Notes: generated by a model from the sequence alone, not told the origin. A DNA stretch of 50,977 bases from Actinomycetota bacterium (GCA_013202875.1 JABMRD010000009.1:1-50977), one strand, 5' to 3'; shown: positions 10,574 through 39,300, counted from the stretch's first letter. Numbers and translations are program-made.

Positions 10574-10580
10574 TTTTATC

Positions 10581-11859: not shown

Positions 11860-11877
11860 CATTTAAAAGATATCAAT

Positions 11878-13404: not shown

Positions 13405-13902
13405 CTAATCTCTTTTTATCTCATCCATTATCAGTTTGCATACCCTGGGGATTGAATCAAGAAGCACCTTTGAAATACCCATGGAAACACTCTCAGGAAT
13501 ATTTTCTACCTGACAGGAAAAGATTTTTATATAAATCTTACACTGGTCTTTTAGTTCTTTTAATAAATTTGAAGTAGGGAGTTGATGCATTGAGAAATCA
13601 TCTATCTTTTTTTCAGGAATATCTTCAAGCTCAATCTCAAAAACCTCTCCCGGTATTTTGCCAACATCTAATGCATCAATAATAATTATCTTATCCGGCT
13701 TCTTAGGGGAAAGGACTACGTCAAACAGTATATTTCTGACACTGCATCCAGCATTTATTATTTCAACATTTCCTGGAATCGAATAATTTTTTTTAAAATA
13801 ATTAACTGTTTGAGGACCAAATCCATCATCGCCAAATAATATATTTCCACACCCTAAAATAAGGATTGGTTTTCTGTAACGGTCGGGAATATTATTTTGC
13901 AT
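13405..13902 (-). CDS. [NiFe] hydrogenase maturation endopeptidase (FrhD/HycI family)
   Basis: 165 aa. It has the ILGCGNILFGDDGFG motif and sits immediately downstream of the Mvh-type large subunit. Confidence 0.8.
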   Translation of the reverse strand: MQNNIPDRYRKPILILGCGNILFGDDGFGPQTVNYFKKNYSIPGNVEIINAGCSVRNILFDVVLSPKKPDKIIIIDALDVGKIPGEVFEIELEDIPEKKIDDFSMHQLPTSNLLKELKDQCKIYIKIFSCQVENIPESVSMGISKVLLDSIPRVCKLIMDEIKRD

Positions 13903-13904
13903 TT

Positions 13905-15347
13905 TTAGTTTTTATAAGTTTGAACTACTTTACCGGAAGCATCTACAATATCTACCTTGACTGCAATACTACCGTCCAAATTATGAGTTGCACATGACAG
14001 GCATGGATCATATGCACGAATCGCCATCTCTACTCTGTTTAATATACCCTGGTCATATTTTCCATCCTTGATCAAATCCATTGCTGTCCTTTTTACTGAC
14101 ATATTGATCGGAGCGTTGTTATGTGTGGTACCAACTATCAGATTTACATTGGTAACCATTCCATTTTCATCAGTTTCATAGTCATGAATCAGTGTACCCC
14201 TTGGTGCTTCAACACAACCAATTCCTCGAGCAGCGCGTGGTTTAACAGGAATCCTTATGTCCTTTGAAATTATTTCATGGTCTTCTAATAACTGGACTGC
14301 ATATTCTGCATTATATAGTAATTCAATCAATCTTGCCCAGTTATAAAGAAGTGTCAGCTGTACAGGCCTTCCGAATTCTTTACGATATTCTTCAAGTTCC
14401 TTCTGAGCAAGCGGTGTCTTTATCTTTTCACAGACATTCATTCTTGCAAGCGTATTGGTCCTGTAAACACCTACCGGATTATCCAGATCCATTGAAAGCT
14501 TACCTGCTTTTTTCATATATGGAAATTTCAGATATGTCCACGGTTCAATATGCTCGGCTATATAATCTGTATACTTATCATATGTAAAGTCTTCATAACT
14601 ACCGTCAGCCTGCATCATCCTTAAAACCCCATCATAGAGCTCAAGTGTACCGTCCTTTGTCACCGTTCCTAAAAATCCTGTTTTTATGACTCCCAGTGTC
14701 TTAACTGCTTCAATATACGGTGGAAAGATATTGTTCTTGGCATAATCAATCGAAAACTTTGCAAACTCAAGGACTTCCTTTGCCATTTTCAGCGCTTCAT
14801 CTCTTTCTTCGGAAGTCAAAACCTTGCTGTATCCTCCGGGAACCGCAGCAACCGGATGAATTGATTTTCCGGATATTATTTCCAGCATCCTTGCACCCAG
14901 GTGCCTGTTTCTTACGACTTTCTTTCCTATATCCGGAAACTTCTGCGCAATACCAATTACATTTCTTATACTATAATCAGCATCAGGTCCCATTACAAAA
15001 TCAGCTCCTGCCAGAAAGTAAAAATGTAGAATATGTTCTTCAGTGAAAGCAATAGAATTACAAAGTTCCCGGAGCTTTCTTGCAGCAGACGGTATCTTTA
15101 CCCCGAAAATAGCATCACATGCTTTTGCACTGGCTAGATGATGTGACCATGGGCATACCCCACAAATACTGGTAACAATTCTTGGAAGTTCCTCAACAGG
15201 CCTGCCAATACAAAATTTTTCAAATCCCCTGAGTTCAACAACATGAACCATTGTATCACTGACATTTCCACTATCATCTAATTGTATGGTAATTTTTGCA
15301 TGACCTTCAATTCTCGTTACTGGTTGAATAACAATTTTTTTACCCAT
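13905..15347 (-). CDS. mvhA: [NiFe] hydrogenase large subunit, Mvh-type (group 3c-like)
   Basis: 480 aa. The N-terminus reads PVTRIEGHAKITIQLDD..RGFEKF..RIVTSICGVCPWSHH. By memory it is nearly colinear with methanogen MvhA. The C-terminal DPCLSCATH is followed by a 25-aa cleavable tail. Confidence 0.9.
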   Translation of the reverse strand: MGKKIVIQPVTRIEGHAKITIQLDDSGNVSDTMVHVVELRGFEKFCIGRPVEELPRIVTSICGVCPWSHHLASAKACDAIFGVKIPSAARKLRELCNSIAFTEEHILHFYFLAGADFVMGPDADYSIRNVIGIAQKFPDIGKKVVRNRHLGARMLEIISGKSIHPVAAVPGGYSKVLTSEERDEALKMAKEVLEFAKFSIDYAKNNIFPPYIEAVKTLGVIKTGFLGTVTKDGTLELYDGVLRMMQADGSYEDFTYDKYTDYIAEHIEPWTYLKFPYMKKAGKLSMDLDNPVGVYRTNTLARMNVCEKIKTPLAQKELEEYRKEFGRPVQLTLLYNWARLIELLYNAEYAVQLLEDHEIISKDIRIPVKPRAARGIGCVEAPRGTLIHDYETDENGMVTNVNLIVGTTHNNAPINMSVKRTAMDLIKDGKYDQGILNRVEMAIRAYDPCLSCATHNLDGSIAVKVDIVDASGKVVQTYKN

Positions 15348-15426
15348 TTTTCCTCCTCTTTATCTTAGCTATCGGTATCAACTGATGTAATAAATCAATC
15401 TTAAACCGAAATTATCTAATAAGTTT

Positions 15427-16353
15427 CTAGGGTCTCTTGGGCAACGGTCTTAGCCTGCCCTGTGCCCCAATATACCTCTGAAATGTAGACCGCCTGTCAA
15501 GGATCAGCTTTGGGTCCAGGCCAATACTTGAAAGTGCTCCCATCATCTCGACCATTGGATTTGCTCCCGCTCTTATCGGACCAAAACAGCCCCTGCAGGG
15601 CATAAATGCTTTAATACATCTTGGAACTTTTTCACTGCCCCCACAACCGGACTTTGTTACGGGACCAAGACATAGAAAGCCGAGTTCCATAAAACATCTT
15701 GAATCTTCTAATTTCTGACCGGGTGGTACTATCGATTCCAATGGTCTTTTTATTGCTGTAATCGCCTTTTTTTCTCTTTTAGCAGGGCAATCATCACAAA
15801 CACTTCGTTCCGGTATTTCAAATGTCTTGCCTTCAAGCAGCGCAGTCAGTGCCTGGACAATAAGCTCGGGTGTAGTCGGACAGCCGGGAATATAGACATC
15901 TACTTTAACTACTTCATCTATTGCGTAAACTCTATCGGTCAGGGGTGGGATATCTACTGAAGGAGTATCAGCTGAATCTGTAGTCTTTGACTGCCTGAAA
16001 ACCTTATCATAAAGCTCTTCCAGTGGATATTGATTTGCCAGAGCAGGAATTCCCCCGAAACATGCACAGGAGCCGAGTGATATAAGTGTGTTGCATTTTT
16101 TTCTCATTTCCTCTGTAACATGTTTTTCTTTCTCATTTCTTATCCCGCCTGATATGATCCCGATATCCGCTTCCGGTATCTCCATTTCTGTTTTCTCACC
16201 TGTCTGACCAAAATACTTGTGATCCATAAGAACCGGCATGTGTACAAACTCCAGCTTGGGTAATAAATCAAGCAGTGGTTCTCCAATGTCTAAAATAGTT
16301 ACTTCACAACCCCCACAAATATTTAACCACTCTTCCGCAACTTTTACTGGCAT
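15427..16353 (-). CDS. mvhG: [NiFe] hydrogenase small subunit, Mvh-type
   Basis: 308 aa from the ATG at 16353, with a GAGAGGAGAG Shine-Dalgarno upstream. The track's start at 16392 would overlap the preceding ORF. Motifs are WLNICGGCE and SLGSCACFGGIP, with cysteine-rich distal cluster motifs. Confidence 0.85.
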   Translation of the reverse strand: MPVKVAEEWLNICGGCEVTILDIGEPLLDLLPKLEFVHMPVLMDHKYFGQTGEKTEMEIPEADIGIISGGIRNEKEKHVTEEMRKKCNTLISLGSCACFGGIPALANQYPLEELYDKVFRQSKTTDSADTPSVDIPPLTDRVYAIDEVVKVDVYIPGCPTTPELIVQALTALLEGKTFEIPERSVCDDCPAKREKKAITAIKRPLESIVPPGQKLEDSRCFMELGFLCLGPVTKSGCGGSEKVPRCIKAFMPCRGCFGPIRAGANPMVEMMGALSSIGLDPKLILDRRSTFQRYIGAQGRLRPLPKRP

Positions 16354-16369
16354 AATTTCTCTCCTCTCT

Positions 16370-16573
16370 CTAAATAGTAGGTTGACCTTCAACTATAACT
16401 TCTTCTACAACTCTGCGGGTAAATATATAATATTTTTTCTCTTCCTCAAACACCTCCGTTTCAAATCCATCTTTTTTATATTTTTGAGCTACATCCAAAG
16501 CACTCTTTTTATCAGGATAATCTTTCCCATCCCACATATATTTTTTTCCATTAATTATTCTTGCTAATTGCAC
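16370..16573 (-). CDS. Small conserved-looking hypothetical protein (67 aa) between mvhD and mvhG
   Basis: The ORF fits tightly between neighbours, with 10-nt and 16-nt gaps. Its composition is charged and globular-looking, with no Cys. I do not recognise a family. Confidence 0.5.
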   Translation of the reverse strand: MQLARIINGKKYMWDGKDYPDKKSALDVAQKYKKDGFETEVFEEEKKYYIFTRRVVEEVIVEGQPTI

Positions 16574-16583
16574 CTTTTACCTT

Positions 16584-17006
16584 TCACGTTTTAAATGGAC
16601 TGGGGCCCAATTTTTTTATTGTTTCCGTAAATTCAGTCATTACCTGAGCAAACTTTGGACCCTCTGAAGCTGAAACCCATTCCAATCTGAATCTCTCATC
16701 TTCTATTCCGAAATCCTCAAGCATAAGCCTGATTGCATCTGCTCTCTTTTCTGCCTTTAAATTACCATCTAAATAATGGCAATCCCCTGGATGGCACCCA
16801 CATATTATAACACCATCAGCACCTTTCGTTAAGGCATCTATCACTAAATTCGGATGAATCATCCCAGAACACATTACTCTTATTATACGAATATTTGTAG
16901 GATACTGCATTCTCGATGTCCCGGCTAAATCGGCTCCGGCATAGGAACACCAGTTGCAGCAGAATCCTATAATTAATGGCTCAAATTTTTCTCCAGTATT
17001 GTTCAT
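16584..17006 (-). CDS. mvhD: MvhD/FlpD-type [2Fe-2S] electron-transfer subunit
   Basis: 140 aa. It has the FCCNWCSYAGADLAG and CGCHPGDCHY signature motifs of the methyl-viologen-reducing hydrogenase delta subunit. Confidence 0.9.
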   Translation of the reverse strand: MNNTGEKFEPLIIGFCCNWCSYAGADLAGTSRMQYPTNIRIIRVMCSGMIHPNLVIDALTKGADGVIICGCHPGDCHYLDGNLKAEKRADAIRLMLEDFGIEDERFRLEWVSASEGPKFAQVMTEFTETIKKLGPSPFKT

Positions 17007-17008
17007 TT

Positions 17009-20000
17009 TTATGATACCTCCAATGCGGCATTAACCATAGCTGATATTTGTTCAAGTTTAAATCCTCTGACAAATATACCTATTTTAGGGCAGGTAGCCT
17101 GACAAACACCGCATCCTTTACAAGCAGACTCATCCACCTCGACAGTTTTCTTTATTGCACCGTCCTTCATATATTCAATCAAGGTTATAGCATTATATGG
17201 GCACGGGTCTATGCAGTATGCACAACCATCACAGTTTTCATCTATTACCTGGGATATATTTGCCTCTAATTCTATAGTTTCTTTAGAAAGTATGGTACTC
17301 GCTCGTGCCGCCGCACCGCAAGCCTGGGTGATACTTTCTTCAATTGATTTTGCCGAATGAGCAAGGCCGCACAAAAAGACCCCTTCCGTAGCAAAATCAA
17401 CCGGACGGAGCTTCATGTGCGCTTCCAAAAAGAAATTGTCCTGATCTAATGGTATTTTTAACATTTGAGCAAGGTCTTTGTTTTTCGGATGGGGAATAGT
17501 CGCCGCAGACAGGACTAAAAGGTTAGTATTGATAGTAACCGGCATACCCAAGATCGGATCGACCAGGGAAACTTTTAACACACCGTTTTGTTTTGCTACC
17601 TCCGGTTTTTTATCCTTCTCATACCTGATAAAAATTACTCCCATCTGGCGCGCTTTAGTGTAATAGCTTTCTCTAAATCCATAGGTCCTCATATCCCTGT
17701 AGAGGACAAATACATTTGCCCGTGGGTTAATCTCTTTTATTTTTATGGCATTCTTGACTGCTTCAGAACAGCATACCCGGCTGCAGTAAGGTCGCTCATC
17801 ATCTCTTGAACCGACACACTGGATCATAACCACTGTTTTCAGCGCCCGTGTATCAATGCCCGTTTCCTTGTGCTCAGAGCTAGCCGCTAACCATTTTTCC
17901 AGTTCGAGTTGAGTCATTACTTTTTCATCTTCACCGTATAGATATTCAGTTGGTTTGTATTCCCGAGCACCAGTAGCAACAATTACAACTCCATGGTTTA
18001 TCTCAATCTTCTTGCTACCGCTCCCTGTTTTCTGCTTTGCACTACCTGTCTCTATTGTTGTCTTGAAATTACCAAAAAACCCTTCAATATTTAATATCTT
18101 TGTATCGGTATAAAGATGAATCTTATCATTTCCCTTAACACGTTCAATTAAAAAAGCCATCTGTTTTTGCGGTTTTTCTCCATTTAATAGAAAATGTATA
18201 CGCCTTAGGTTCCCACCCAATTGCTTCTCCTTCTCTACCAGATACACCTCATAACCCTGCTCTGCTATCTCCATGGCTGCACTTATACCGCTCAGCCCTC
18301 CACCAATAACCAGAGCGCTGTGATTTACACTGACTTTCCTCCTCTGCAGTGGTTCTAATAATCGCACTTTGGACACTGCCATCCGCACCAGGTCTTTTGA
18401 TTTTTGAGTAGCTTTTTCCGGCTCGTGCATATGCACCCAGGAACACTGGTCACGGATATTAGCCATTTCAAATAAGTAAGAATTGAGCCTTGCCTCGCGG
18501 ACGGTATTCCGGAATAGTGGTTCGTGCGTCCTGGGAGTACAGGAAGCAACAACTACCCGGTTAAGATTATGTTCCTTAATCAAATCTTTAATCCTCTCCT
18601 GGGTATCATTTGAACAGGTATAAAGATTATTCTCAGCATAAACCACATCAGGTAAGGTTTTTGCATATTCCACTACCTCGGGAACATTCACCACACCGGC
18701 TATGTTTGACCCGCAGTGACAGATAAATACACCAATACGCGGACTCTGACCGGTGACATCTTTCTCCGGAGGATATTCTTTGGCCTTGATCAAAGTTCCT
18801 CGCGCTTCAGAAAGAAGAGACAAAACCTTAGATGCTGCACCACCTGCTTGAGTCACTGTTTCCGGTATATCTTTAGGCTCGGTAAACGGCCCGCAGACAA
18901 ATATTCCTTCTTTGCTGGATTCAACTGGCCTAAAAGTATCGGTCCAGCAGAACCCATGCTCATTAAGTTTAATCCCAAACTTACTGTTAAGCTTTTTGGC
19001 CAGTTCCGGCGGCTGTATGCCAACAGATAAAACTACTAAATCATACTTCCCGGTCAACCTCTTCCCGTCATCTGTTACATAATTGATCTTGAGATTTTTT
19101 GTGTTTTGTATTTCTTCTACAGATGAGGGCCGGCATCTTATATATTTTACTCCAAGCTCTTTTGCCCTTTCATAATAAGCATCGAAACCTTTACCAAATG
19201 CACGAAGGTCCATAAAGAATATATCGCATTCCAGATCTTTGCCGGCATGCTCCTTGGCAATAATCGCCTCTTTAGTTGCATACATACAGCATATTGAAGA
19301 ACAGTAATCTCTTTCTGTATCCCTTGAACCAACACATTGGATAAAAGCGATCCTTTTCGGTGCAAGTTTATCCGAAGGCCTCAAAACCTTACCTTCATAC
19401 GGGCCGGAAGTGCTTAATATTCTTTCAAATTCAAGAGCAGTTACAACATTAGGATAGTTTAAATAACCGTATTCTAATTTTTCCCCTGCATTAAAAATAT
19501 CGTAGCCCGGAGAAAAAATCACTGAACCGACTTTTAAATCAATCTTTTCTTCTTTTTGATCATAATCAATGGCATCTGCTTCACAAAATTCCTTACATAT
19601 TTCACATTCATCACGAAGCATATGGACACAATACCGGTCATCAATGGTAGCTTTGTTGGGTATTGCCTGTGGATAAGGAATATATACAGCCGGCCTGGAG
19701 TTCAAACCCATATTATGTTCAAAGGGAATAGGGTGAGGTTCGTTTTTACTTACTTCAGGAAGCCTGATTTTTCCTGTGGGACAGATAAAATCACAAGCAC
19801 CACAGGCCTGACATACGTCAGAAGGCTTGCCAAAAGGTGATGTTACTTCTCGTCTCGGCCCCCGGCCTGAAAAACTTATTGCCGCTCTTCCCATTCGCTC
19901 CTCGCACATCCTTACGCACAGTCCACAAAGTGTACAGTCCTTATTCTTGAGTTTGATTCTTGTTTTCTCCACACCTAATTCTCTGGCAAGATTCTTAATC

Positions 20001-20305
20001 TCTTCTGAATCCGGGCACCTGGCCATCAGTAACTCTATCATTATTTTTCTTGTTTTTATAACCCTTTCCGAATCAGTCTGGACCACCAGACCTTCAAGTG
20101 CCGGATAGGTGCAGGATGCCTGAATTTCCGGAGGTCCCCCATTCTTACTTATCTCAACAAGACAAAGCCTGCAGGCACCGTAAGGTGAAAGCGCTTTATG
20201 CGAACATAGAGTTGGAATTTTTATTCCTGCTTTATCAGCAGCTTTTAGGAGAGTTAACCCTTCCTCTATTTCAATCTTTTTATCATTTATTGTTAGTGAT
20301 ATCAT
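17009..20305 (-). CDS. hdrA: Fusion protein: HydA/NuoG-N-terminal-like [2Fe-2S]+[4Fe-4S] module + HdrA lacking its first FAD-binding segment + second HdrA-like unit + C-terminal 2x[4Fe-4S]
   Basis: 1098 aa. Residues 1-70 read TINDKKIEIEEG..LCSH..GACRLCLVEI..ASCTYP, a plant-type 2Fe-2S module as in NuoG/HydA N-termini. CTLCGLCVRMC and CQACGACDFICP follow. From AVYIPYPQAIP onward the protein is colinear with the 1014-aa HdrA at 29772-32816. Shared motifs are FIQCVGSRD, CSSICCMY, IGVFICHCGSNIAG, VIGGGLSGISAA, MIQCVGSRD..CSRVCC and CDGCAYC..CKGCGVC. Confidence 0.85.
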   Translation of the reverse strand: MISLTINDKKIEIEEGLTLLKAADKAGIKIPTLCSHKALSPYGACRLCLVEISKNGGPPEIQASCTYPALEGLVVQTDSERVIKTRKIMIELLMARCPDSEEIKNLARELGVEKTRIKLKNKDCTLCGLCVRMCEERMGRAAISFSGRGPRREVTSPFGKPSDVCQACGACDFICPTGKIRLPEVSKNEPHPIPFEHNMGLNSRPAVYIPYPQAIPNKATIDDRYCVHMLRDECEICKEFCEADAIDYDQKEEKIDLKVGSVIFSPGYDIFNAGEKLEYGYLNYPNVVTALEFERILSTSGPYEGKVLRPSDKLAPKRIAFIQCVGSRDTERDYCSSICCMYATKEAIIAKEHAGKDLECDIFFMDLRAFGKGFDAYYERAKELGVKYIRCRPSSVEEIQNTKNLKINYVTDDGKRLTGKYDLVVLSVGIQPPELAKKLNSKFGIKLNEHGFCWTDTFRPVESSKEGIFVCGPFTEPKDIPETVTQAGGAASKVLSLLSEARGTLIKAKEYPPEKDVTGQSPRIGVFICHCGSNIAGVVNVPEVVEYAKTLPDVVYAENNLYTCSNDTQERIKDLIKEHNLNRVVVASCTPRTHEPLFRNTVREARLNSYLFEMANIRDQCSWVHMHEPEKATQKSKDLVRMAVSKVRLLEPLQRRKVSVNHSALVIGGGLSGISAAMEIAEQGYEVYLVEKEKQLGGNLRRIHFLLNGEKPQKQMAFLIERVKGNDKIHLYTDTKILNIEGFFGNFKTTIETGSAKQKTGSGSKKIEINHGVVIVATGAREYKPTEYLYGEDEKVMTQLELEKWLAASSEHKETGIDTRALKTVVMIQCVGSRDDERPYCSRVCCSEAVKNAIKIKEINPRANVFVLYRDMRTYGFRESYYTKARQMGVIFIRYEKDKKPEVAKQNGVLKVSLVDPILGMPVTINTNLLVLSAATIPHPKNKDLAQMLKIPLDQDNFFLEAHMKLRPVDFATEGVFLCGLAHSAKSIEESITQACGAAARASTILSKETIELEANISQVIDENCDGCAYCIDPCPYNAITLIEYMKDGAIKKTVEVDESACKGCGVCQATCPKIGIFVRGFKLEQISAMVNAALEVS

Positions 20306-20756
20306 TTTTTAATCCCTTTGTATCAAGATGATAACTTGCACCATTTTCCCTATATTCATAAATAAAATTTATATCAGGATTTACAGCTATTAAAACTTTC
20401 AACGACTTATGAATATCACCTAAAGGCCTGCGGTCAATATGGCTATAGCCGAATGTGACCTTGACCTTTGTCCCCTTGCCTGGCTTTGATTTTATTTTAA
20501 TACTTCCTCCGCTTTCTTCTGCAGACTGGGCAAGAAGCGAAAGACCCAGACCAACTCTTTTTATGTTTTTTGTAGTAAAAAATGGGTCCAATACATTTTT
20601 TAATGTCTTCTCGTCCATACCTTCTCCGTCATCAATTATTTCAATATTAAGTAAATCTCTTTTTTTATCCTCAATAATTTTTATTTCAATCTTTTTAGCA
20701 CGAGCCCTGATTGAGTTTTCTACTATGTCCAAAATATGTAAAGATAAATCCTCCAT
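20283..20756 (-). CDS. Stand-alone histidine-kinase-like ATPase domain protein (no HisKA/phosphoacceptor domain)
   Basis: 157 aa. The N box is LHILDIVENS, G1 is IDDGEGM, and G2 is GLGLSL..GGSI. There is no dimerisation or His domain. Confidence 0.75.
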   Translation of the reverse strand: MEDLSLHILDIVENSIRARAKKIEIKIIEDKKRDLLNIEIIDDGEGMDEKTLKNVLDPFFTTKNIKRVGLGLSLLAQSAEESGGSIKIKSKPGKGTKVKVTFGYSHIDRRPLGDIHKSLKVLIAVNPDINFIYEYRENGASYHLDTKGLKNDITNNK

Positions 20757-21509
20757 CTAGCCAATCATCACCTTTCTTCCATCTTCCCCGGATAAAGCTT
20801 TCTTAATCTCTCCTATACTTGCCTCTTCCATAAGAAAGACGGTAAAACTTTTACCGATATCTTTTAAAAAATGTGCATCAGAAAAAGTTACCAGTGAAAA
20901 ACCGTAAAGTTCCGGATTTACCCGCCTGTCGGCGACACAGACTGTTTTCAGTTCATAATTTGGAGACAGTTCCAGAGCATCAAGCAGTAACCCTTCAGGG
21001 ATAAATCCCAGTTGAGCAATAATGCTATAACTCTCTCTATCGATATGGGAGGCAATAGTCAGCCCTCCCAGAGAATATATTGCCTGGACTATTTCCTGTA
21101 AAGACAGTGATGTCGCCCCGATCAAAAGCCTGTTATTGGAACCTACAACTTCGTTATTTTCATTGATTATAAGTTGTTTTCCAAAAATCTTCTCATCATT
21201 AAAACCTGATAATTTCTCATAAATAATCTCTTGAAATTTAAACAACTCTTTAACGTTTTCAAAAAGTGCAAGGATATGGACCTCCTCCTGTGATGTAGCC
21301 TCAATCCCACCAATAACAGCTATATCTTCTCTCTGTCCTATTTTTTTAGTTGCCACAACGTTTTCTGCTGAGTTATGGTCACAAATCCCCACTATATCTA
21401 AATCATTCATTTTTGCCTGCCTGATTATACTTTGCGGAAACATCTCCTCGTCTGCACAGGGCGAAAGAGAAGTATGAATATGTAAATCCGCTTTAAATTT
21501 TCTTAACAT
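20757..21509 (-). CDS. PHP-domain phosphoesterase
   Basis: 250 aa. It has the ADLHIHTSLSPC and GICDHNS metal-binding His/Asp motifs. Confidence 0.8.
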   Translation of the reverse strand: MLRKFKADLHIHTSLSPCADEEMFPQSIIRQAKMNDLDIVGICDHNSAENVVATKKIGQREDIAVIGGIEATSQEEVHILALFENVKELFKFQEIIYEKLSGFNDEKIFGKQLIINENNEVVGSNNRLLIGATSLSLQEIVQAIYSLGGLTIASHIDRESYSIIAQLGFIPEGLLLDALELSPNYELKTVCVADRRVNPELYGFSLVTFSDAHFLKDIGKSFTVFLMEEASIGEIKKALSGEDGRKVMIG

Positions 21510-21841
21510 CCACCTAACATCCTGTATAATTTTCCGATTATTTCAAAAGCCGTAAGTCCTGTTACCATAATTAGTATATCTTCTTCCCCTGCTTTTTTTA
21601 ATGTTTCCTCTTCAGGTTTTCTTCCATTAACTATTATAATTCCTGTCAGTTCTTTTAATGTGGCTACTCCGACAATATTCTGATGAATTTGCAAAGTAAT
21701 CCAGATGTTATCTTTTTTTGCGTTTGCTATAACATCACTTAACAGATCACTGGCATAACCACCACTTACTTCTTTGTTCAAATTAGAAACCCTGGATTTG
21801 ACTTCTAGCCCCAATTCTTCAACTATCTGTTTAAGTTTCAT
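21503..21841 (-). CDS. DRTGG-domain protein
   Basis: 112 aa. DLLSDV is followed by ..ELTGIIIVNG.., a pattern like the DRTGG domain. Its length is single-domain. Confidence 0.65.
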   Translation of the reverse strand: MKLKQIVEELGLEVKSRVSNLNKEVSGGYASDLLSDVIANAKKDNIWITLQIHQNIVGVATLKELTGIIIVNGRKPEEETLKKAGEEDILIMVTGLTAFEIIGKLYRMLGGC

Positions 21842-22755
21842 TTTTCCCCCTGAGTATAGATAATTACTTCTATCTCTGTTCCTTTCCCAGCTACAGAGTT
21901 AATATTCATCTTATCCGCACACTTTTTGATATTCGGAAGACCCATTCCAGCTCCAAATCCCAGTTCCTGAACTAAAGGTGGAGCAGTGGAAAAACCCGGC
22001 TGCATTGCCTTTTTAACATCAGGGATACCGGGGCCAGAGTCCACTGCCTTGACCCTAATCTCATCTGGTCTGATGTAAGCAGTAATGCGACCTCCAGAAG
22101 TGAAAATTACAATATTCATCTCTGCTTCATATGTTGCAATAGCTATCCTGCGAAGAATCTGCGGAGGTATTCCTAATCTGGCTAAACTTTTTTTAAGCCC
22201 ACTGGCAGATTCTCCCGCATGCTTAAAATCCTGGCCGGCAATATCGTATTCAAAAATAAGAGTGGTTTTATCAGCAATAATATCTCTAAATATATGTGAA
22301 GCACGGTAACGATGAATCTCTTCCTCATGATAATTAATCTCAAGTTCTTTAAGCAGGGTCTTTATAATATCGCCCTTGGCAATAACGCCTACTAATTTTC
22401 CACTACTTCGTTCAACTACAGGGAAGCGGCCAAAACCATGCTTGTTAAATTTATTAACAGCATGAATAAGCGGTTCATCTTCGTATAAAGTTTTTACCTC
22501 TCTTGTCATCTTATCTCCTACAAAAGAATCTATTTCTCCATCTGCCAGGCACTTTATAAAATCCTCGATACTCACTACACCGACTAATTTATCTTTATCC
22601 ACAACCGGTGTTCCTGAAATACGATTAATCCTCAATATTTCCCTTAATTCACCCATACGGTTTTTAGAGTGAACTTTAACTACATCTCTTGTCATTGCCT
22701 GCTCAACCGTTAACTCATAAGCAAGTTCCTGAACTTTGGTAATCTCTCTATTCAT
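21838..22755 (-). CDS. CBS-pair + RsbW/SpoIIAB-like serine-kinase (HATPase_c_2) fusion protein
   Basis: 305 aa. It has two CBS repeats (VEQAMTRDVV..GTPVVD and VGDKMTREV..FPVVE). The C-terminus is anti-sigma-factor-like: ATYEAEMNIV..DSGPGIPD..GMGLPN. Confidence 0.7.
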   Translation of the reverse strand: MNREITKVQELAYELTVEQAMTRDVVKVHSKNRMGELREILRINRISGTPVVDKDKLVGVVSIEDFIKCLADGEIDSFVGDKMTREVKTLYEDEPLIHAVNKFNKHGFGRFPVVERSSGKLVGVIAKGDIIKTLLKELEINYHEEEIHRYRASHIFRDIIADKTTLIFEYDIAGQDFKHAGESASGLKKSLARLGIPPQILRRIAIATYEAEMNIVIFTSGGRITAYIRPDEIRVKAVDSGPGIPDVKKAMQPGFSTAPPLVQELGFGAGMGLPNIKKCADKMNINSVAGKGTEIEVIIYTQGEK

Positions 22756-23104
22756 TTATTTCAGAGCACCCCGCCAGTCCTTCTTTATATAATTTTCCGC
22801 ATGCTTCAAACAAGGGAAAATCTGTCAAGAGCAAAGGGATATTTTTACTTTTTGCAAGTTCAACGGTCTCCTTATCCGGTTTTTTCCCTCTAACAAAACA
22901 TACTGCTTTTATATCAGACATCTCTACTGTACGGATAACCTGTGGATTTGTAAGTCCTGTTAGAAGAAGGGAATCTGACTTGACAAAAGCCAGTACATCA
23001 CTCATCAGGTCACATCCGCAGGCCATTTTTATATCTGCATTTAAGGCATCAGAACCTACAATCACCTTTGCATTTAGTATTTTTTTTATCTTATCAAGTG
23101 TCAT
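22748..23104 (-). CDS. DRTGG-domain protein
   Basis: 118 aa. The motif is DLMSDVLAF..LLLTGLTN. It is a paralogue of the 112-aa ORF. Confidence 0.65.
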   Translation of the reverse strand: MTLDKIKKILNAKVIVGSDALNADIKMACGCDLMSDVLAFVKSDSLLLTGLTNPQVIRTVEMSDIKAVCFVRGKKPDKETVELAKSKNIPLLLTDFPLFEACGKLYKEGLAGCSEINE

Positions 23105-23153
23105 TTCTTTTTTGACTTGTTAAACTTTTACTCATTCTAATGTTTAATATTTT

Positions 23154-25001
23154 CTATTTTCTCTGTATAGCGTTAAATTTGCATACTTCATAACACATAT
23201 TGCATTTGATACATTTATCCTGATCTATAGTATGTGGTTCTTTTCTTTTACCGGTAATAGCATCCTGTGGACAATTTTTTGCACATAACATGCATCCGGT
23301 ACATTTCTCCTCATCGACAAAATACTGGACCAGAGCTTTACATACTCCTGCCGGGCATTTTTTATGTTTTATATGCTGTTCATATTCATCTCTAAAATGT
23401 CTTAATGTAGAAAGAACAGGATTGGGAAGCGTTTGGCCAAGTCCACATAGGGAAGCATCCTTTATTGCCTGCCCTAACTCTTCAAGGAATTCTATATCTC
23501 CTTCTTCACCTTTGCCATTTGATATTTTATCTAAAATTTCAAGAAGAGCTTCGCTTCCTTCACGGCAAGAATTACATTTTCCACAGGACTCGTCATTGGT
23601 AAACTGCAGGAAATATTTCGCGATATCAACCATGCAGCTGTCTTCATCAAGTACGATCATTCCCCCTGAACCCATAATAGAACCCACTTCTGCTAATCGT
23701 TCGTAATCTATCGGTAAATCAAGCATTTCTTTAGGGATGCATCCTCCTGAAGGACCACCTGTTTGCACAGCTTTAAACTCTTTTCCGTCAGGGATACCAC
23801 CACCGATATCATAAATTATCTCCCTTAAAGTCGTACCCATAGGGACTTCAACCAAACCAGTATTATTTATTTTTCCAACTAAAGAAAAGACTTTTGTACC
23901 TTTACTCTTCTCGGTACCAATTGATGCAAACCATTCAGCACCCCTATTAATTATACTGGGTACAGTAGCCCAAGTTTCTACATTATTAATATTGGTTGGC
24001 ATTCCCCAAAGTCCTGATTGTGCCGGGAATGGTGGCCTTTGCCTTGGCTCAGGAGGTCTGCCTTCAATCGAAGCCATCAACGATGTTTCCTCACCGCATA
24101 CAAAAGCGCCGGCTCCTTTTTGAATCTTTATGTCAAAATTAAAGCCTGTATCAAATATATTTTCACCAAGCAGGCCGTAATCTTCGGCTTGTTTGATTGC
24201 CAGTTCTAATCTTTCCATAGCAAGGGGGTACTCAGCCCTTATATATATATAACCATTATTTGCACCGATGGCATAAGCGCCTATTATCATGCCTTCCAAT
24301 ACTCCATGGGGATCTGATTCGATTATACTTCTATCCATAAACGCTCCGGGATCTCCTTCATCAGCATTACATATAATATATTTTGTATTTTGTTTCTTGC
24401 TTTTCGGTTTTGCTTTACGGCATAATTCCCATTTTAAACCGGTTGGAAATCCAGCACCACCCCTACCTCTAAGGCCTGATTTTTTCACCTCTTCGATTAC
24501 TTCTAAAGGAGCCATTTTAGTCAATACTTTCGCTAATGCTTTATATCCATCACGCGCGATATATTCATCAATATTCTCAGGGTCAATCAACCCCCTATTC
24601 TTAAGAGCGATCAACCTCTGGCGTGCAAAAAACCCTATCTCCATCATTTTCGGGATCGGCTCTTTTTCTTCAGGCGGGGTATACATCAATTTTTTTACAG
24701 GCCTTCCTTTTAAGAAATGTTCCTCTACTAAATGAGGAATATCATCTTCCTGTAACTGCTGGTAAAAAAACCCGTCCGGCTTGACTACCATAACAGGTCC
24801 TAATGCACAAAAACCATTACAACCTGTCATAACTACGAGTACTTCATCTTGTAGATTTTGTTTTTTTAGTTCCTTTTCAAGGACTTCTTTTATTTTGAAT
24901 GATTTATTAGACACACAACCCGTACCTGCACAAAGCATAAGGTGCATCCTGTAATGCTTGCCAGTTTGCTCGTTTATTGGTTGTATATTCTGATTATTCA
25001 T
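23154..25001 (-). CDS. NuoF/HydB-type NAD(H)- and FMN-binding Fe-S subunit (bifurcating-hydrogenase beta-subunit architecture)
   Basis: 615 aa. The N-terminal thioredoxin-like 2Fe-2S domain has CAGTGC..GCNGFC. The FMN/NADH site is GLRGRGGAGFPTGLKW. A 4Fe-4S motif reads ESCGKCNSCREG. The C-terminal 2x[4Fe-4S] reads CTGCMLCAKNCP and CIKCNMCYEVC. Confidence 0.9.
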   Translation of the reverse strand: MNNQNIQPINEQTGKHYRMHLMLCAGTGCVSNKSFKIKEVLEKELKKQNLQDEVLVVMTGCNGFCALGPVMVVKPDGFFYQQLQEDDIPHLVEEHFLKGRPVKKLMYTPPEEKEPIPKMMEIGFFARQRLIALKNRGLIDPENIDEYIARDGYKALAKVLTKMAPLEVIEEVKKSGLRGRGGAGFPTGLKWELCRKAKPKSKKQNTKYIICNADEGDPGAFMDRSIIESDPHGVLEGMIIGAYAIGANNGYIYIRAEYPLAMERLELAIKQAEDYGLLGENIFDTGFNFDIKIQKGAGAFVCGEETSLMASIEGRPPEPRQRPPFPAQSGLWGMPTNINNVETWATVPSIINRGAEWFASIGTEKSKGTKVFSLVGKINNTGLVEVPMGTTLREIIYDIGGGIPDGKEFKAVQTGGPSGGCIPKEMLDLPIDYERLAEVGSIMGSGGMIVLDEDSCMVDIAKYFLQFTNDESCGKCNSCREGSEALLEILDKISNGKGEEGDIEFLEELGQAIKDASLCGLGQTLPNPVLSTLRHFRDEYEQHIKHKKCPAGVCKALVQYFVDEEKCTGCMLCAKNCPQDAITGKRKEPHTIDQDKCIKCNMCYEVCKFNAIQRK

Positions 25002-25012
25002 AATTTAAATAA

Positions 25013-25405
25013 TTAAAATACTCTTTCACTACCTTTTGCCAATGCATAATCCTTGACTATTTTGCCTCCAAGCACATGCTCTTTAAATATTTCCTTAATC
25101 TTCCCAGGTGTGAGTTCAATGTATTTAACCGGAGCTTCTCCTTTCAATTCAACTGTTGCCATAGGTTCCTTGCTGCATAAGCCGGCACAACCGGATGTGG
25201 TCAATATGATATCTTTGATATTCTTTTTTTCTATCTCGGCCAGTAACGTACTCATTATCTCCCTTGCGCCTGCAGATATGCCGCAGGTGCCCATATGGAC
25301 AGTAATTTTTGCCCTGCCGGCTCCTTCACGTAAAATAACTGTTCTTTTTACTTTTTTACTTATTTTATCTAAATCTTCAATTTTTATTCTTGGCACTTCT
25401 GGCAC
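25013..25405 (-). CDS. Small thioredoxin-like [2Fe-2S] ferredoxin (HydD/HndB-like)
   Basis: 130 aa. Cysteine motifs are MGTCGISAG and SGCAGLCSKEP. Confidence 0.7.
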   Translation of the reverse strand: MPEVPRIKIEDLDKISKKVKRTVILREGAGRAKITVHMGTCGISAGAREIMSTLLAEIEKKNIKDIILTTSGCAGLCSKEPMATVELKGEAPVKYIELTPGKIKEIFKEHVLGGKIVKDYALAKGSERVF

Positions 25406-25425
25406 ACTCTCCTTTAATTTTATTA

Positions 25426-26376
25426 TTATGTTTTAGTCCTATATTCATTGATTATTCCGGGAACTTTTTTCTGTGTCACTTTTCCATACAAATCTTCATT
25501 AATTTTCATAACCGGTGACAGGCCGCAACATCCAATACAGCGTACCGTCTCTAAAGTAAAATTCATATCTTCAGTAGTTTCACCTGGTTTTATACCCAGT
25601 TCTCTTCCTAGTGCTTCGACAATACTCGGACCGCCTTTGACATGGCAGGCAGTACCCAAACAGATAGATATTAAATATTTCCCCCTGGGTTCCAGGCTGA
25701 AGGCATTATAAAATGTTGCCAGCCTGTAAACCTGACTCAGCGGATAGCCGAGTTCATCAGCGACATACCTTAGTACTTCAGCAGGCAAATACCTGTACTG
25801 GCTGCTGATATCCTGCAGTACGGGTACCAATGTACCTTTCTTATTTTTATAATTATTTATTATTACCCTTACCCTTTGCAGATCTTCATCTGAAAGTTTT
25901 AACTCCTCTTTTTCAGGTTCAGTATAGATTATGTTCCTTACAGGACAATTATTTACACATAATGCGCACCCGGTGCACTTTTCTTCGTCAACATAACGCG
26001 GTCTTTTTTTCAAAGTCACAGTAAAATTACCCGGCTGACCTTCAATATCTTCTACATCTGCCAGGGTGATTATTTCAATATCCTTGTGGCGACCTATCTC
26101 AACCAGCCGGGGAGCCATTGTACACATAGCACAATCATTAGTGGGAAAAGTCTTATCCAGCTGGGACATCACTCCACCAATACAGGGTTTTGTCTCTACC
26201 AAATATACTTTTATTCCTGACTCAGCAAGATCAAGTGCCGCCTGCATGCCGCCAATTCCTCCACCGACTACCATTGCTGCACCAACCTTCTTCTGATTCA
26301 TGATATCTGATTCATGATTCATAATATTTTCTCGTTGTTTTTTTATCTTTTCCATACTATACCCTGCATTTCGCAT
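25426..26376 (-). CDS. Fusion protein: HdrA N-terminal FAD-binding fragment + NuoE/HydC-like [2Fe-2S] domain
   Basis: 316 aa from the ATG at 26376, which overlaps the upstream stop as TGATG; an alternative ATG is at 26355. The N-half reads VVGGGIGGMQAALDLAESGIKVYLVE..GGVMSQLDKTFPTNDCAMC..CTGCALCVNNCP and matches residues 1-115 of the 1014-aa HdrA. The C-half reads LVPVLQD..CLGTACHVKG..RCIGCCGLSPVM and is NuoE-type. Confidence 0.8.
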   Translation of the reverse strand: MRNAGYSMEKIKKQRENIMNHESDIMNQKKVGAAMVVGGGIGGMQAALDLAESGIKVYLVETKPCIGGVMSQLDKTFPTNDCAMCTMAPRLVEIGRHKDIEIITLADVEDIEGQPGNFTVTLKKRPRYVDEEKCTGCALCVNNCPVRNIIYTEPEKEELKLSDEDLQRVRVIINNYKNKKGTLVPVLQDISSQYRYLPAEVLRYVADELGYPLSQVYRLATFYNAFSLEPRGKYLISICLGTACHVKGGPSIVEALGRELGIKPGETTEDMNFTLETVRCIGCCGLSPVMKINEDLYGKVTQKKVPGIINEYRTKT

Positions 26377-27221
26377 CAATATTCCTGTGGTAATCCCTGC
26401 AATTCTTTATAAGTAAATACAGGTCCATCTTTACACACATATTTAGGTCCAATATTACATCTTCCACACTTACCGATCCCGCATTTCATACGCATTTCCA
26501 GAGAAAAAAAGATCTTCTCCGGTTTGAAGCCCAGGTCCATTAGCGGCAGCATGGTGTATTTAACCATAATAAGAGGGCCACAGACAAGAACAATGCTGTT
26601 TTCAGATCTCGGCGCTATCTCACTCAACACATTTGGTACCAATCCAACACGGCCCTTCCAATTTTTATCTCCCCTGTCCACCGTTAGGTGGACATTGATG
26701 TCATCTCTCTGGTCCCACTGCTTCAATTCCGATTTATAAATAAGCTCACCAGGGCTTCGCGCACCGTAAAGTACAGTAATATCTTTAAAATATGCTCTGT
26801 TTTTTTTATGAAGTATGTATCTGGTAAGCGATCTTAAAGTGGTAAGAGCAAATCCTCCACCTACGATTACAAGATTGCTTCCTTCAAAATCTTTCATAGG
26901 AAATCCATTCCCATAAGGACCTCTTATACCAATCATATCCCCCGGGCAAAGATTATGTAGAGCACTAGTAACTACACCTGTGGTATATTTCTTAACAGTG
27001 AACTGCACCAGGTCTTCATCCATAGGTGATGAAGCAATCCCAATGGGTGCTTCACCGATACCTAACATAGATATCTCTGCAAACTGCCCGCAAGTATATT
27101 TAAACTTTTCAGTTTCTTTCTTAACATTAAATACCAGATCAAATGTTTTAATATCCCTGGCTTCATTCTCAATAGTAATCTTTTTTATTGTTACTGGTAT
27201 AGGTAGATACGGATTATTCAT
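26376..27221 (-). CDS. FAD/NAD(P)-binding [2Fe-2S] oxidoreductase, FlxA / sulfhydrogenase gamma-like
   Basis: 281 aa. It has a ferredoxin-reductase-like fold with GQFAEIS and IVGGGFALTTL. The C-terminus reads KCGIGKCGRCNIG..YVCKDGPVF. It is a paralogue of both hyhG copies. Confidence 0.8.
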   Translation of the reverse strand: MNNPYLPIPVTIKKITIENEARDIKTFDLVFNVKKETEKFKYTCGQFAEISMLGIGEAPIGIASSPMDEDLVQFTVKKYTTGVVTSALHNLCPGDMIGIRGPYGNGFPMKDFEGSNLVIVGGGFALTTLRSLTRYILHKKNRAYFKDITVLYGARSPGELIYKSELKQWDQRDDINVHLTVDRGDKNWKGRVGLVPNVLSEIAPRSENSIVLVCGPLIMVKYTMLPLMDLGFKPEKIFFSLEMRMKCGIGKCGRCNIGPKYVCKDGPVFTYKELQGLPQEY

Positions 27222-27247
27222 AATCTTCCTTCCAACAATGTAACTCC

Positions 27248-28327
27248 TTAAATCTTCTTATCTTTACACAATGATCCTAACGACATTAACGATACCAACA
27301 CTTCTCTCAAATCAAGATTTACCGGACAATTTCTAATACAACGGCCGCAACCTACACAGAATATTTCTTTAAAATTTTCCGGACAATAATTGAATTTGTG
27401 CATAATCCTCTGCCGCATTCTTTCTTTATAAGTCGGCCTTGGGTTATGTCCCGATGCATGCAGGGTAAACAATGGATACATGCAGGAATCCCAGCATCGT
27501 ACCCTTTTGCCTTCAGGTGTTTTTGAATCTGCTGCTTTGGGATTTATCTCATCAGTAATGTCAAAACAATGGCAGGTCGGGCAGAAATAAGTACAGATAC
27601 CGCAGCCAAGACATTTCTGGTGGATCTCATTCCATAAAAGGTCGTTAAAAGCATTGTCCAGTTTTTCCTTTATATTTTGAATGTCGATTTGAGATTTGAT
27701 TTTATTTAAACTTAAATCCATAAGTTTATCTTTTTTATCTACATCGGATTGGCCGGCATCTTTAAACCACTTATTTTGTTTTTCAATAAATTTTTCGCCC
27801 TTTTTTGTTACCGCTCCGGCAAGAACATCTTCCCCAAGATCAAATAAAATAATATCCGCTCCTTCTTCATTTTCCGGTTTACCTTTCAGAGAAGTACAAA
27901 AACAATCGATCTGAGGTTTGCTGCAGGCCAGAGATATAACAGTTGTCTTTTTTCTTCTTTCAAGATAGTATGGATCTTCAAAATCTTCTCCTCCGAAGAC
28001 CTTGTCCAGCAGAGAAATAGCCTGAGCATCACAGGGCCTGATGCCAAAAATCAAATAGTCCTTCCCCCCAGGAGTAGAGCCTTCAGCCTTTACTTCAGCT
28101 CCCGGCCCGAAACAAAACAATGTCTCTGCCTGAGGAAAGAGTATTTCTTTGGGTGAGATTTTTGTATTCCTGTAATCCCAGAAAATATCCTGCCCGGATT
28201 TGAACTCTGAAAACCGGGCATCGCCATTATCCTCAATCGGGACAAAGATGCTGTACTCTTTTTTAAGACTTTCAAGCAATTTTAATATTTCTTTTTTCTT
28301 AATTATCTTAAATTTTTTATTTTCCAT
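27248..28327 (-). CDS. 4Fe-4S dicluster protein, FlxB / sulfhydrogenase beta-like
   Basis: 359 aa. Motifs are CLGCGICTYFCPTCHCFD and CVGCGRCIRNCP. It is a paralogue of both hyhB copies. Confidence 0.75.
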   Translation of the reverse strand: MENKKFKIIKKKEILKLLESLKKEYSIFVPIEDNGDARFSEFKSGQDIFWDYRNTKISPKEILFPQAETLFCFGPGAEVKAEGSTPGGKDYLIFGIRPCDAQAISLLDKVFGGEDFEDPYYLERRKKTTVISLACSKPQIDCFCTSLKGKPENEEGADIILFDLGEDVLAGAVTKKGEKFIEKQNKWFKDAGQSDVDKKDKLMDLSLNKIKSQIDIQNIKEKLDNAFNDLLWNEIHQKCLGCGICTYFCPTCHCFDITDEINPKAADSKTPEGKRVRCWDSCMYPLFTLHASGHNPRPTYKERMRQRIMHKFNYCPENFKEIFCVGCGRCIRNCPVNLDLREVLVSLMSLGSLCKDKKI

Positions 28328-28339
28328 TTTTAACTCATT

Positions 28340-29311: not shown

Positions 29312-29769
29312 TTTAATATTTCTTTAATATATTCAGCTTCTTTCTGCCATTTACTCAATTTTTTACTCGGCCCCAGTTTTTTTATCTCACTGGTTACTTT
29401 CTCAATAATATCTACAAAACGTCCTCCTTCTGCTGCTGAGACCCATGAAAACTGTACCCGGCCCGGTTCGATCCCTATATACTCCAAAAAACTTTTAAGA
29501 AGTGCAAATTTTCTCCTTGCAACCAGATTCCCGCTTATATAATGACAGTCTCCGGGATGACAGCCTGAGACCAAAACTCCGTCAATACCGTTCTGCAGCA
29601 CCTTGATAATATAGAAAGGGTTTACTCTGCCCGAACAGGGTACACGAATAACCCTGATATTAGGCGGGTATTGAAGCCGTGAGACCCCAGCAAGATCAGC
29701 CCCTGCATATGAACACCAATTACAGAGAAATGTAACTATTTTAGGTTCCCAGTTATTATCATTTTTCAT
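29308..29769 (-). CDS. MvhD/FlxD-type [2Fe-2S] subunit
   Basis: 153 aa. Motifs are FLCNWCSYAGADLAG and SGCHPGDCHY. It is a paralogue of the 140-aa mvhD. Confidence 0.9.
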   Translation of the reverse strand: MKNDNNWEPKIVTFLCNWCSYAGADLAGVSRLQYPPNIRVIRVPCSGRVNPFYIIKVLQNGIDGVLVSGCHPGDCHYISGNLVARRKFALLKSFLEYIGIEPGRVQFSWVSAAEGGRFVDIIEKVTSEIKKLGPSKKLSKWQKEAEYIKEILK

Positions 29770-29771
29770 TT

Positions 29772-32816: not shown

Positions 32817-32874
32817 AATCTTATCATTTGATCTTATATCTTTATTAATTTCTTTCCCCTCTTTGCTTTATTTT

Positions 32875-37401: not shown

Positions 37402-37405
37402 GACC

Positions 37406-39291: not shown

Positions 39292-39300
39292 AGGAAGATT

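Follow-up and report, generated by a model that had tools for sequence, protein, structure and literature searches.

The window analysed here is a stretch of 50,977 nt from an Actinomycetota bacterium (GCA_013202875.1 JABMRD010000009.1:1-50977). It contains a gene cluster, at 13405-26376, in which one unit of a tandem HdrA is encoded in two separate genes, each as a fusion to a module of the Bfu (HydABC/Hnd) family, together with genes for an Mvh-type [NiFe] hydrogenase. Every gene of the cluster lies on the minus strand, with tiny intergenic gaps or overlaps. Domain calls for the open reading frames (ORFs) of the window were taken from Pfam and NCBIfam, and structure matches from PDB. The features of the cluster are:

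25426..26376, minus strand: hdrA-N::nuoE (bfuC/hndA-like) fusion, 316 amino acids (Pfam, PDB, BLAST, motif census)
~25936-26274, minus strand: HdrA N-fragment of the 316-residue protein, with GxGxxG, DKTFPTNDCAMC and, from the inserted ferredoxin domain, the first CxxCxxCxxxCP
~25438-25866, minus strand: NuoE/HydC thioredoxin-like [2Fe-2S] domain of the 316-residue protein
25013..25405, minus strand: thioredoxin-like [2Fe-2S] ferredoxin, 130 amino acids, resembling HndB and the BfuB N-terminal domain
23154..25001, minus strand: nuoF/hydB-type BfuB, 615 amino acids, with N-terminal [2Fe-2S], flavin mononucleotide (FMN)/nicotinamide adenine dinucleotide (NADH) site, NADH_4Fe-4S and C-terminal 2x[4Fe-4S]
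20283..23104, minus strand: five-gene accessory cassette, DRTGG; CBS + HATPase_c_2; DRTGG-like; PHP; HATPase_c (Pfam)
17009..20305, minus strand: bfuA-N::hdrA-C fusion, 1098 amino acids
19760-20305, minus strand: minimal BfuA part of the 1098-residue protein, [2Fe-2S] + 2x[4Fe-4S], lacking the His-ligated cluster
18761-19750, minus strand: rest of HdrA unit 1, with the second inserted-ferredoxin Cys motif, QCVGSRD...CSSICC and the G...PKDIPE flavin adenine dinucleotide (FAD) motif
17009-18760, minus strand: HdrA N-terminal-domain homologue, second FAD unit (GxGxxG at residue 668) and C-terminal ferredoxin domain
16584..17006, minus strand: mvhD (FlpD), 140 amino acids (Pfam, NCBIfam)
16370..16573, minus strand: unannotated small ORF, 55-67 amino acids (conservation in related loci)
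15427..16353, minus strand: mvhG-like [NiFe] hydrogenase small subunit (NCBIfam)
13905..15347, minus strand: mvhA-like group 3c-type [NiFe] hydrogenase large subunit, with RxCGxCxxxH and DPCxxCxxH
13405..13902, minus strand: hydrogenase maturation protease (HycI/FrhD-like)

The small fusion protein starts at an ATG at position 26376, which overlaps the stop codon of the upstream gene (TGATG) and is preceded by AGGA 6 nt upstream; the ORF itself reaches 26379 (317 residues). A preliminary description of this DNA had proposed that the N-terminal part of the protein reproduces that of HdrA and gives way to a NuoE/HydC domain directly after the first CxxCxxCxxxCP, and both proposals are borne out. 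Residues 36-148 of the 317-residue ORF match residues 6-118 of the intact 1014-residue HdrA encoded upstream of the split cluster (29772-32816), which served as the comparison paralogue, with 65% identity (BLAST, E 4e-48). The 2Fe-2S_thioredx domain (PF01257) occupies residues 172-314 (Pfam, E 3e-51). The top PDB matches of this second part are the HydC chains 8a6t_C and 7q4v_C (E 1e-45 to 1e-47); the NuoE-like thioredoxin-fold [2Fe-2S] subunit that characterizes BfuC is thus present, here as a domain of a fusion protein. The first ~30 residues of the 316-residue protein are not conserved. What follows them contains the beta-alpha-beta FAD motif, the DKTFPTNDCxMC segment and one Cys motif, and nothing more of HdrA.

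The 1098-residue protein opens with the HydA/NuoG-type [2Fe-2S] plus Fe-S module that had been assigned to it: Fer2_4 covers residues 1-79 (Pfam), two CxxCxxCxxxC motifs follow, and residues 4-182 match the minimal BfuA of WorABC (9mqx_A, E 2e-37; 9MQX is cited for WorA in PMC12318220) as well as HydA N-termini. The [2Fe-2S] A1 and [4Fe-4S] A2/A4 sites of the BfuA N-module can all be located, and the His-ligated A3 motif and the BfuA C-terminal domain were not found in the BfuA part of the protein, in which respect WorA is alike (PMC12318220). Owing to this lack of A3 and of the C-terminal domain, electrons must enter the BfuA part via A4. From about residue 190 the protein is colinear with the 1014-residue HdrA up to the C-terminus (49% identity), as the preliminary description had stated. 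BLAST pairs C165xxCxxCxxxCP of the large protein with the first Cys motif of HdrA. This candidate was rejected, because homology to BfuA and HydA puts the motif in the BfuA 2x[4Fe-4S] fold; judged by that homology, the pairing of the second BfuA motif is a coincidence of Cys motifs. HdrA unit 2 has its FAD-domain motifs complete within one chain, and the only GxGxxG of the protein, at residue 668, belongs to it, so that none is left for the first unit, as noted before.

The position of the break was mapped on the HdrA structure of Methanothermococcus thermolithotrophicus (PDB 5ODC chain A), where residues 145-258 correspond to the small protein and 257-510 to the large one, and on the NCBIfam HdrA2 profile, where the two cover positions 140-256 and 250-563. 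As the coverage of both proteins meets in both mappings, the break is, by alignment, exact and immediately follows the inserted ferredoxin domain's first CxxCxxCxxxCP; the large ORF joins the HdrA alignment where the small one leaves it, just as had been claimed. A motif census of 50 orthologue pairs and the window gave the same division. In the small protein, GxGxxG and DKTFPTx[DE]CxMC are found in 50/50 pairs and the first Cys motif in 47/50. The large protein supplies the QCxGSR [4Fe-4S] motif (50/50), the second Cys motif Cx(5-12)CxxCxxxC (50/50) and the G..PxDIPE FAD motif (46/50), and has a single GxGxxG, at about residue 668 in unit 2, in 49/50; the odd pair shows an extra GxGxxG match at residue 139, inside the BfuA module. 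Consequently, the FAD-domain motifs of unit 1 (GxGxxG, the C-terminal FAD motif and CxGxRD...CSxxCC) are all present only when both polypeptides are combined. In 16 diverse pairs all 8 Cys of the split ferredoxin domain, four per chain, are invariant, and the Cys residues of BfuA likewise. Each cluster of a two-cluster ferredoxin fold is held by three Cys of one motif and a single Cys of the other. With four Cys on each chain, both clusters would therefore be ligated across two polypeptides. We infer from these motifs that, in HdrA unit 1, the FAD domain and the inserted ferredoxin domain are assembled in trans.

Structure models are consistent with the N-terminal half being a fragment and not, as would be the alternative, a self-sufficient FAD oxidoreductase. 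When the small protein was modelled alone, the NuoE domain reached a predicted local distance difference test score (pLDDT) of 78-94, and the HdrA-N part of ~115 residues 35-71, with 36 for its Cys motif. The control model comprised the first 440 residues of the intact paralogue, with an alignment consisting only of trimmed halves of the split family entered as separate rows. It had a predicted template modelling score (pTM) of 0.81, a pLDDT of 80-95 in the homologous N-terminal segments and 79 in the first Cys motif, and superposed on solved HdrA with a template modelling (TM) score of 0.90 at 2.5 A. This suggests that the HdrA-N fragment may need the C-terminal part to fold.

The arrangement is widespread and is present in many anaerobes that have not been cultured. 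At least 120 clusters of ~295-residue proteins share the HdrA-N/NuoE architecture in a protein search, and about 25 representative clusters at 50% identity cover the junction end to end. A genome scan with one genome per species gave at least 481 related stretches, from which the best 80 were used for locus counts, and the 48 loci with at least 9.5 kb downstream for synteny (L numbers denote related loci). The entire fusion is present in 74 of the 80 best loci, representing more than 10 phyla. NuoF, a full-length partner and MvhD lie downstream in 48/48 loci, one of the partners being frameshifted, and the Mvh genes are within the same locus in most of the 48. The closest carriers are Latescibacterota (73-81% identity), and further ones belong to Aminicenantes, Ignavibacteria/Melioribacter, Bacteroidota, Acidobacteriota, Gemmatimonadota, Verrucomicrobiota, KSB1, Planctomycetota, and deltaproteobacterial and Spirochaetota bins. 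One near-identical contig has its called genes in the same order. A group of longer proteins (P0248, P0251, P0254, P0257 and P0261; 420-440 residues) has the junction ~125 residues further in and carries an extra N-terminal extension.

In two loci, one from a Chloroflexota genome (L081, ~75-6493) and one on a metagenome contig (L084, 4206-8518), HdrA-N is a stand-alone gene of ~130 amino acids, located directly upstream of plain nuoE, nuoF and a bfuA-N::hdrA-C of 505-507 amino acids. The Chloroflexota locus encodes HdrA unit 2 by a gene of its own (561 amino acids), after which mvhD and an HdrC-like gene follow. Fusion of HdrA-N to NuoE is therefore not obligatory, and the retention of HdrA-N whether fused or stand-alone argues for complementation in trans.

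The 615-residue protein, described earlier as HydB/NuoF-type, is a full-length bifurcating-type BfuB: it aligns end to end with NiFe-HydB of Acetomicrobium mobile (7t2r_B, E 3e-265, ~65% identity) and with HydB of A. woodii, its Pfam domains are Complex1_51K, NADH_4Fe-4S, 2Fe-2S_thioredx and 2xFer4, the Cys motifs are conserved and the CPxxxC site is present. Extra cluster domains (N-terminal [2Fe-2S], B2 site and C-terminal 2x[4Fe-4S]) set bifurcating BfuB apart from plain NuoF (PMC9304861), and the window protein has them in addition to the FMN/NADH site. The 130-residue ferredoxin scores 24.0 bits with PF01257, under the curated cut-off of 24.8, matches the BfuB N-terminal domain 9n5u_B with E 4e-15, and is present as an HndB-like ferredoxin in most related loci. 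On the hydrogenase side, the large subunit is equally close to methanogen MvhA (5odc_F, E 1.6e-128) and to A. mobile HydL (E 4.5e-123), and its [NiFe] ligand motifs read CGVCPWSH and DPCLSCATH. The top NCBIfam matches of the hydrogenase genes and mvhD are VhuA, VhuG and VhuD, all under the equivalog cut-offs. By NCBIfam, PDB and motif likeness, the subunit type, the adjoining MvhD and the ligand motifs agree with group 3c (Mvh-type); mvhD starts 2 nt past the stop codon of hdrA-C. The HdrB and HdrC proteins that form the high-potential branch of HdrABC-MvhAGD are not part of the cluster. No HdrB/CCG domain (PF02754) was matched in any scanned window ORF or inside the conserved cluster of related loci, and the only HdrC-like gene in the window (191 amino acids) lies upstream of the other, intact HdrA. 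With no HdrB/CCG protein among the scanned ORFs the usual high-potential branch is missing, and HdrA may act as a conduit.

Considering these features, our preferred reading, to which we assign a probability of about 0.6, is that the genes together specify a single soluble multi-subunit hydrogenase that belongs to the Bfu (HydABC/Hnd) family and bifurcates or confurcates electrons between H2, NAD+ and ferredoxin. Association of the polypeptides, cofactor content, order of the electron path, reaction and activity are predicted here from the genes. The Bfu core would consist of BfuB (NuoF-like, with FMN and the NAD(H) site), the NuoE-like BfuC domain and the HndB-like ferredoxin; holding the NAD(H) and ferredoxin sites, it is the most likely seat of bifurcation or confurcation. 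H2 would be the third substrate, handled by the group 3c Mvh-type [NiFe] hydrogenase (MvhAG). In the simplest model, a linear wire would lead from the [NiFe] site through the MvhG clusters to the [2Fe-2S] of MvhD and on to tandem HdrA, where unit 2 would contribute the N-terminal-domain and C-terminal-ferredoxin clusters and unit 1 the FAD and then the split inserted ferredoxin domain, and from there over BfuA A4, A2 and A1 to the BfuBC core, which would couple NAD(H) and ferredoxin. The predicted net reaction is 2 H2 + NAD+ + Fd(ox) <-> NADH + Fd(red) + 3 H+ (Fd, ferredoxin), and in fermentative carriers it probably runs towards H2.

The split would have a structural consequence in such a complex. 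The piece before the break would sit on the N-terminus of BfuC and the piece after it on the C-terminus of the BfuA N-module, and the FAD domain and both inserted-domain [4Fe-4S] clusters would need two polypeptides, so that assembly in trans would clamp the Bfu module onto HdrA-MvhD-MvhGA. Since the HdrA chain breaks off in the inserted domain to continue as BfuC and resumes there behind BfuA, the BfuA clusters would be tethered beside the exit clusters of HdrA. In methanogen HdrA, low-potential electrons leave the bifurcating FAD through the inserted ferredoxin domain (PMC13518236). The order hdrA-N, nuoE, (hndB), nuoF, bfuA-N, hdrA-C is the product to be expected if a segment of an hnd-type operon had been inserted into hdrA.

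Several observations weigh against this reading. The segment GG.M.QLDKTFPTNDC has low confidence in both models, with pLDDT <50 even in the intact control, which may perhaps reflect dependence on a cofactor, and two models of single chains lend the association of the two polypeptides soft support only. No hydrogenase genes were found in the stretch read of the two loci with stand-alone HdrA-N, so the Bfu-split-HdrA core apparently can serve other partners. The C-terminal 2x[4Fe-4S] domain of BfuB is swapped for a GltD-like domain in 14/48 loci, which indicates that cofactor specificity varies. Moreover, a mere wire does not need a complete HdrA FAD site, of which there are possibly two, and a second bifurcation or a fourth substrate could be the reason for keeping it. 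The preliminary description had inferred two bifurcation sites in one assembly, which we treat as a possibility. In that case the HdrA FAD would split the electrons of H2 and the Bfu FMN/Fe-S site would serve NAD(H) and ferredoxin, in series or in parallel, with an extra high-potential or very-low-potential partner from outside the cluster. The strict conservation of all HdrA cofactor motifs, the completeness of BfuB as a bifurcating-type subunit and the proposal that BfuABC and HdrA are successive bifurcating modules in Bam-Bfu (PMC9304861) fit two sites; yet the conserved cluster holds no HdrB/HdrC or other acceptor module, and a single bifurcation already accounts for H2, NAD(H) and ferredoxin, which makes this arrangement rather doubtful. 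In its boldest form it becomes a two-stage machine, with the trans-built HdrA FAD and the Bfu FMN/Fe-S site in series linking H2 to NAD(H), ferredoxin and a further partner, and with an origin by 'operon-sized domain insertion' of an hnd-type segment into the hdrA frame; we put this forward tentatively and consider it unlikely.

It is more improbable still that the HdrA FAD is the sole bifurcating centre, sending one branch via the split ferredoxin domain to BfuA/BfuB, which would then be a plain NADH dehydrogenase module, and reducing ferredoxin at HdrA with the other. Methanogen HdrA is indeed a bifurcating site that feeds ferredoxin-like acceptors (PMC13518236), and the function proposed for the HdrL form is of the same kind (PMC4053972). 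However, Bfu is grafted here on the low-potential branch of the methanogen enzyme, yet NAD+ is a high-potential acceptor, and BfuB retains the N-terminal [2Fe-2S] and C-terminal 2x[4Fe-4S] that are absent from non-bifurcating NuoF homologues (PMC9304861). That HdrA-N on NuoE is a vestige, and that the Bfu and the Hdr-Mvh enzymes are mere neighbours with no joint complex, is very hard to reconcile with the data: conservation in the small protein is highest in the N-fragment (65 invariant positions in ~115 residues, 36 in all the rest), each fusion links one system with the other, the large protein would have no dinucleotide-binding motif for its unit 1 in 49/50 orthologues, synteny holds in 48/48 loci and HdrA-N genes persist in stand-alone form. 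An assembly or frameshift artefact in one long gene, finally, is refuted. The same arrangement recurs in independent assemblies from more than 10 phyla, fusion and partner occur together in 48/48 loci, and ~5.1 kb with seven other genes separate the two halves in the window.

The single Bfu-family hydrogenase that we favour can be set against several known systems. NiFe-HydABCSL of A. mobile (PDB 7T2R; PMC8880783; Bfu type 3) is alike in BfuB, ~65% identical end to end, in its NuoE-like BfuC, in the N-terminal cluster module of BfuA, in a [NiFe] large subunit as close to that of the window as methanogen MvhA is, and in the predicted substrates H2, NAD(H) and ferredoxin. Its small subunit is described as feeding BfuA directly via A3 (PMC12318220, PMC9304861), whereas in the window BfuA has neither A3 nor the C-terminal domain, MvhD and a FAD-bearing tandem HdrA stand in between, BfuC and BfuA each carry one half of an HdrA unit as a fusion, and an extra HndB-like ferredoxin is present. 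MvhAGD-HdrABC of methanogens (PDB 5ODC) shares MvhA, MvhG and MvhD, and its HdrA has the same N-terminal, thioredoxin-reductase-like FAD, inserted ferredoxin and C-terminal ferredoxin domains. In contrast to it, the window cluster has no HdrB/HdrC and no heterodisulfide chemistry, and two complementary HdrA units stand in tandem on one chain, the first of them being split, with the Bfu NADH/ferredoxin module in the inserted-domain loop. In Bam-Bfu (class II benzoyl-CoA reductase BamBCDEFGHI), an HdrA-type module and BfuABC homologues (BamGHI) are combined in one complex, which is a precedent for two candidate bifurcating modules in one enzyme (PMC9304861). In place of a hydrogenase it has a tungstopterin benzoyl-CoA reductase as third module, and according to the description, on which this comparison is based, the Bfu homologues are listed as subunits of their own with no mention of an HdrA fission or fusion (PMC9304861). 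The Hnd/HydABC [FeFe] hydrogenase operons share the gene order NuoE-like, small [2Fe-2S] ferredoxin, NuoF-like, HydA-N-like (hndA-hndB-hndC-hndD-like), but the cluster lacks an H-cluster domain: on its last gene HdrA-C stands in that position, and its first gene carries HdrA-N in addition. The earlier view that the H-cluster domain of HydA is replaced in the logic of the operon thus agrees with the gene order.

A further known system, close on the HdrA side, is the HdrL-type HdrA found next to MvhDGA (L079; Ca. Symbiobacter mobilis Cenrod_2147, PMC4053972), which belongs to the same HdrA subfamily, has a NAD(P)H module in the same loop and is followed by the same Mvh genes. Among our loci, this single-chain form (~1500 amino acids) occurs in L079 (9650-14194), in L080 and as the first copy in L059 (3509-7876), and is closer to the halves in the window (79% identity for the N-part, 58% for the C-part) than the intact paralogue is. 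In L079, MvhD-MvhG-MvhA follow the HdrL-type gene, and ORFs judged by eye to be HdrB-like (285 amino acids) and HdrC-like (167 amino acids) lie directly upstream. HdrL differs in that one polypeptide comprises the whole protein and a GltD/NfnB-like NAD(P)H domain interrupts it ~30 residues downstream of where the window HdrA is split, in the same inter-motif loop, whereas the 'insert' in the window is a multi-subunit Bfu module, as a result of which HdrA is encoded in two genes. Since the split and the HdrL insert occupy the same loop, the loop between the inserted-domain Cys motifs is a place where NAD(P)H-handling modules are inserted recurrently. The genome of Ca. S. mobilis has no HdrBC, and a role in forming H2 from NADH and reduced ferredoxin was proposed for the HdrL form (PMC4053972). 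Another GltD-like combination is seen at the position of BfuB: L002 (2227-5346) and 13 other loci have a 1039-residue NuoF::GltD/NfnB-like fusion in place of the 615-residue protein, with an NAD(P)H-type flavoprotein domain where the C-terminal 2x[4Fe-4S] domain would be. Some versions of the complex may therefore possess one more pyridine-nucleotide site.

Some further genes accompany the cluster. The accessory cassette lies between bfuB and bfuA::hdrA-C in the window and is found at or after that position in ~18/48 loci, so it is optional; elsewhere it lies downstream on the opposite strand (L005, L010, L061) or upstream (L066). Histidine-kinase-like ATPase genes occur in some HydABC operons, and the cassette is presumably a regulatory module that travels with the cluster. 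Between mvhD and mvhG, the small ORF at 16370-16573 encodes 67 amino acids from a GTG or 55 from 'MWDG', with the motif GKKFMWDGxxYxSxxxAxxxxxxYxxxGFE...YTRRVV. It was found by tblastn in 42/80 related loci from many phyla, each time adjoined by mvh genes, and had no match in Pfam or PDB; its product could be either an additional small subunit or a factor for assembly.

Directly upstream (26376-33450, minus strand), possibly in the same operon, there is a second HdrA system, which comprises an HdrC-like protein (191 amino acids), the intact tandem HdrA (1014), MvhD (153), an Fe-S protein (323), a Fer4_22 protein (359) and a PyrK/sulfhydrogenase-gamma-like FAD/NAD(P) protein (281). L001, L057 and L083 have this block ahead of the cluster, too. 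The window as a whole is a hydrogenase island (37364-46396, 8198-12912, 46559-47218), with two further tetrameric group-3b-like [NiFe] hydrogenases (Fer4_22, NAD-binding, small, large) at 37364-41364 (plus strand) and 42429-46396 (minus strand), a further protease gene at 41898-42401, hypF, hypD and hypE-like genes and a HypB/CobW-like gene. Between the hydrogenase blocks there are two sensor-kinase genes (33936-35861, 36301-37401).

A full-text literature search found no published description of the split or of the fission and fusion; its coverage is incomplete and an earlier description is possible. Neither Pfam nor NCBIfam has a model covering either fusion protein, and one supplement of the Bfu classification paper has no Hdr or Mvh entry. 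Units of nuoEFG-mvhD-hdrA were noted in a genome paper (PMC4046663), and genome papers on such clusters describe an Mvh-Hdr of unknown function (PMC5317091) or suggest another role (PMC4053972). Caldithrix abyssi and Thermoanaerobaculum aquaticum are cultured organisms for which clusters of a similar kind have been noted (PMC5317091). The cluster is best seen as a variant of the Bam-Bfu, NiFe-HydABCSL and HdrL-Mvh kinds.

To our knowledge, the carrier organisms have no CoM-S-S-CoB. Bacterial group 3c hydrogenases and bacterial HdrA genes are routinely labelled 'MvhADG-HdrABC, heterodisulfide-linked' in metagenome studies (e.g. PMC12590816), and the cluster hints at the role that 'methanogen-type' [NiFe] hydrogenases may have in bacteria lacking a heterodisulfide to reduce. 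It also provides a natural example of a FAD domain and a two-cluster ferredoxin domain apparently assembled from two polypeptides, and, if the origin by operon insertion is true, a new route to a split flavoenzyme. Two mechanistically distinct bifurcating modules, HdrA-FAD and Bfu FMN/Fe-S, would be brought together in a predicted single assembly, which bears on how Bfu enzymes bifurcate and how HdrA gates electrons. If our reading is true, the enzyme in many lineages, among them Aminicenantes, Ignavibacteria/Bacteroidota, Acidobacteriota, Gemmatimonadota, Latescibacterota, KSB1 and Verrucomicrobiota, would be a hydrogenase that is coupled to NAD(H) and ferredoxin and has a Bfu core, and the H2 metabolism inferred for these groups would change.

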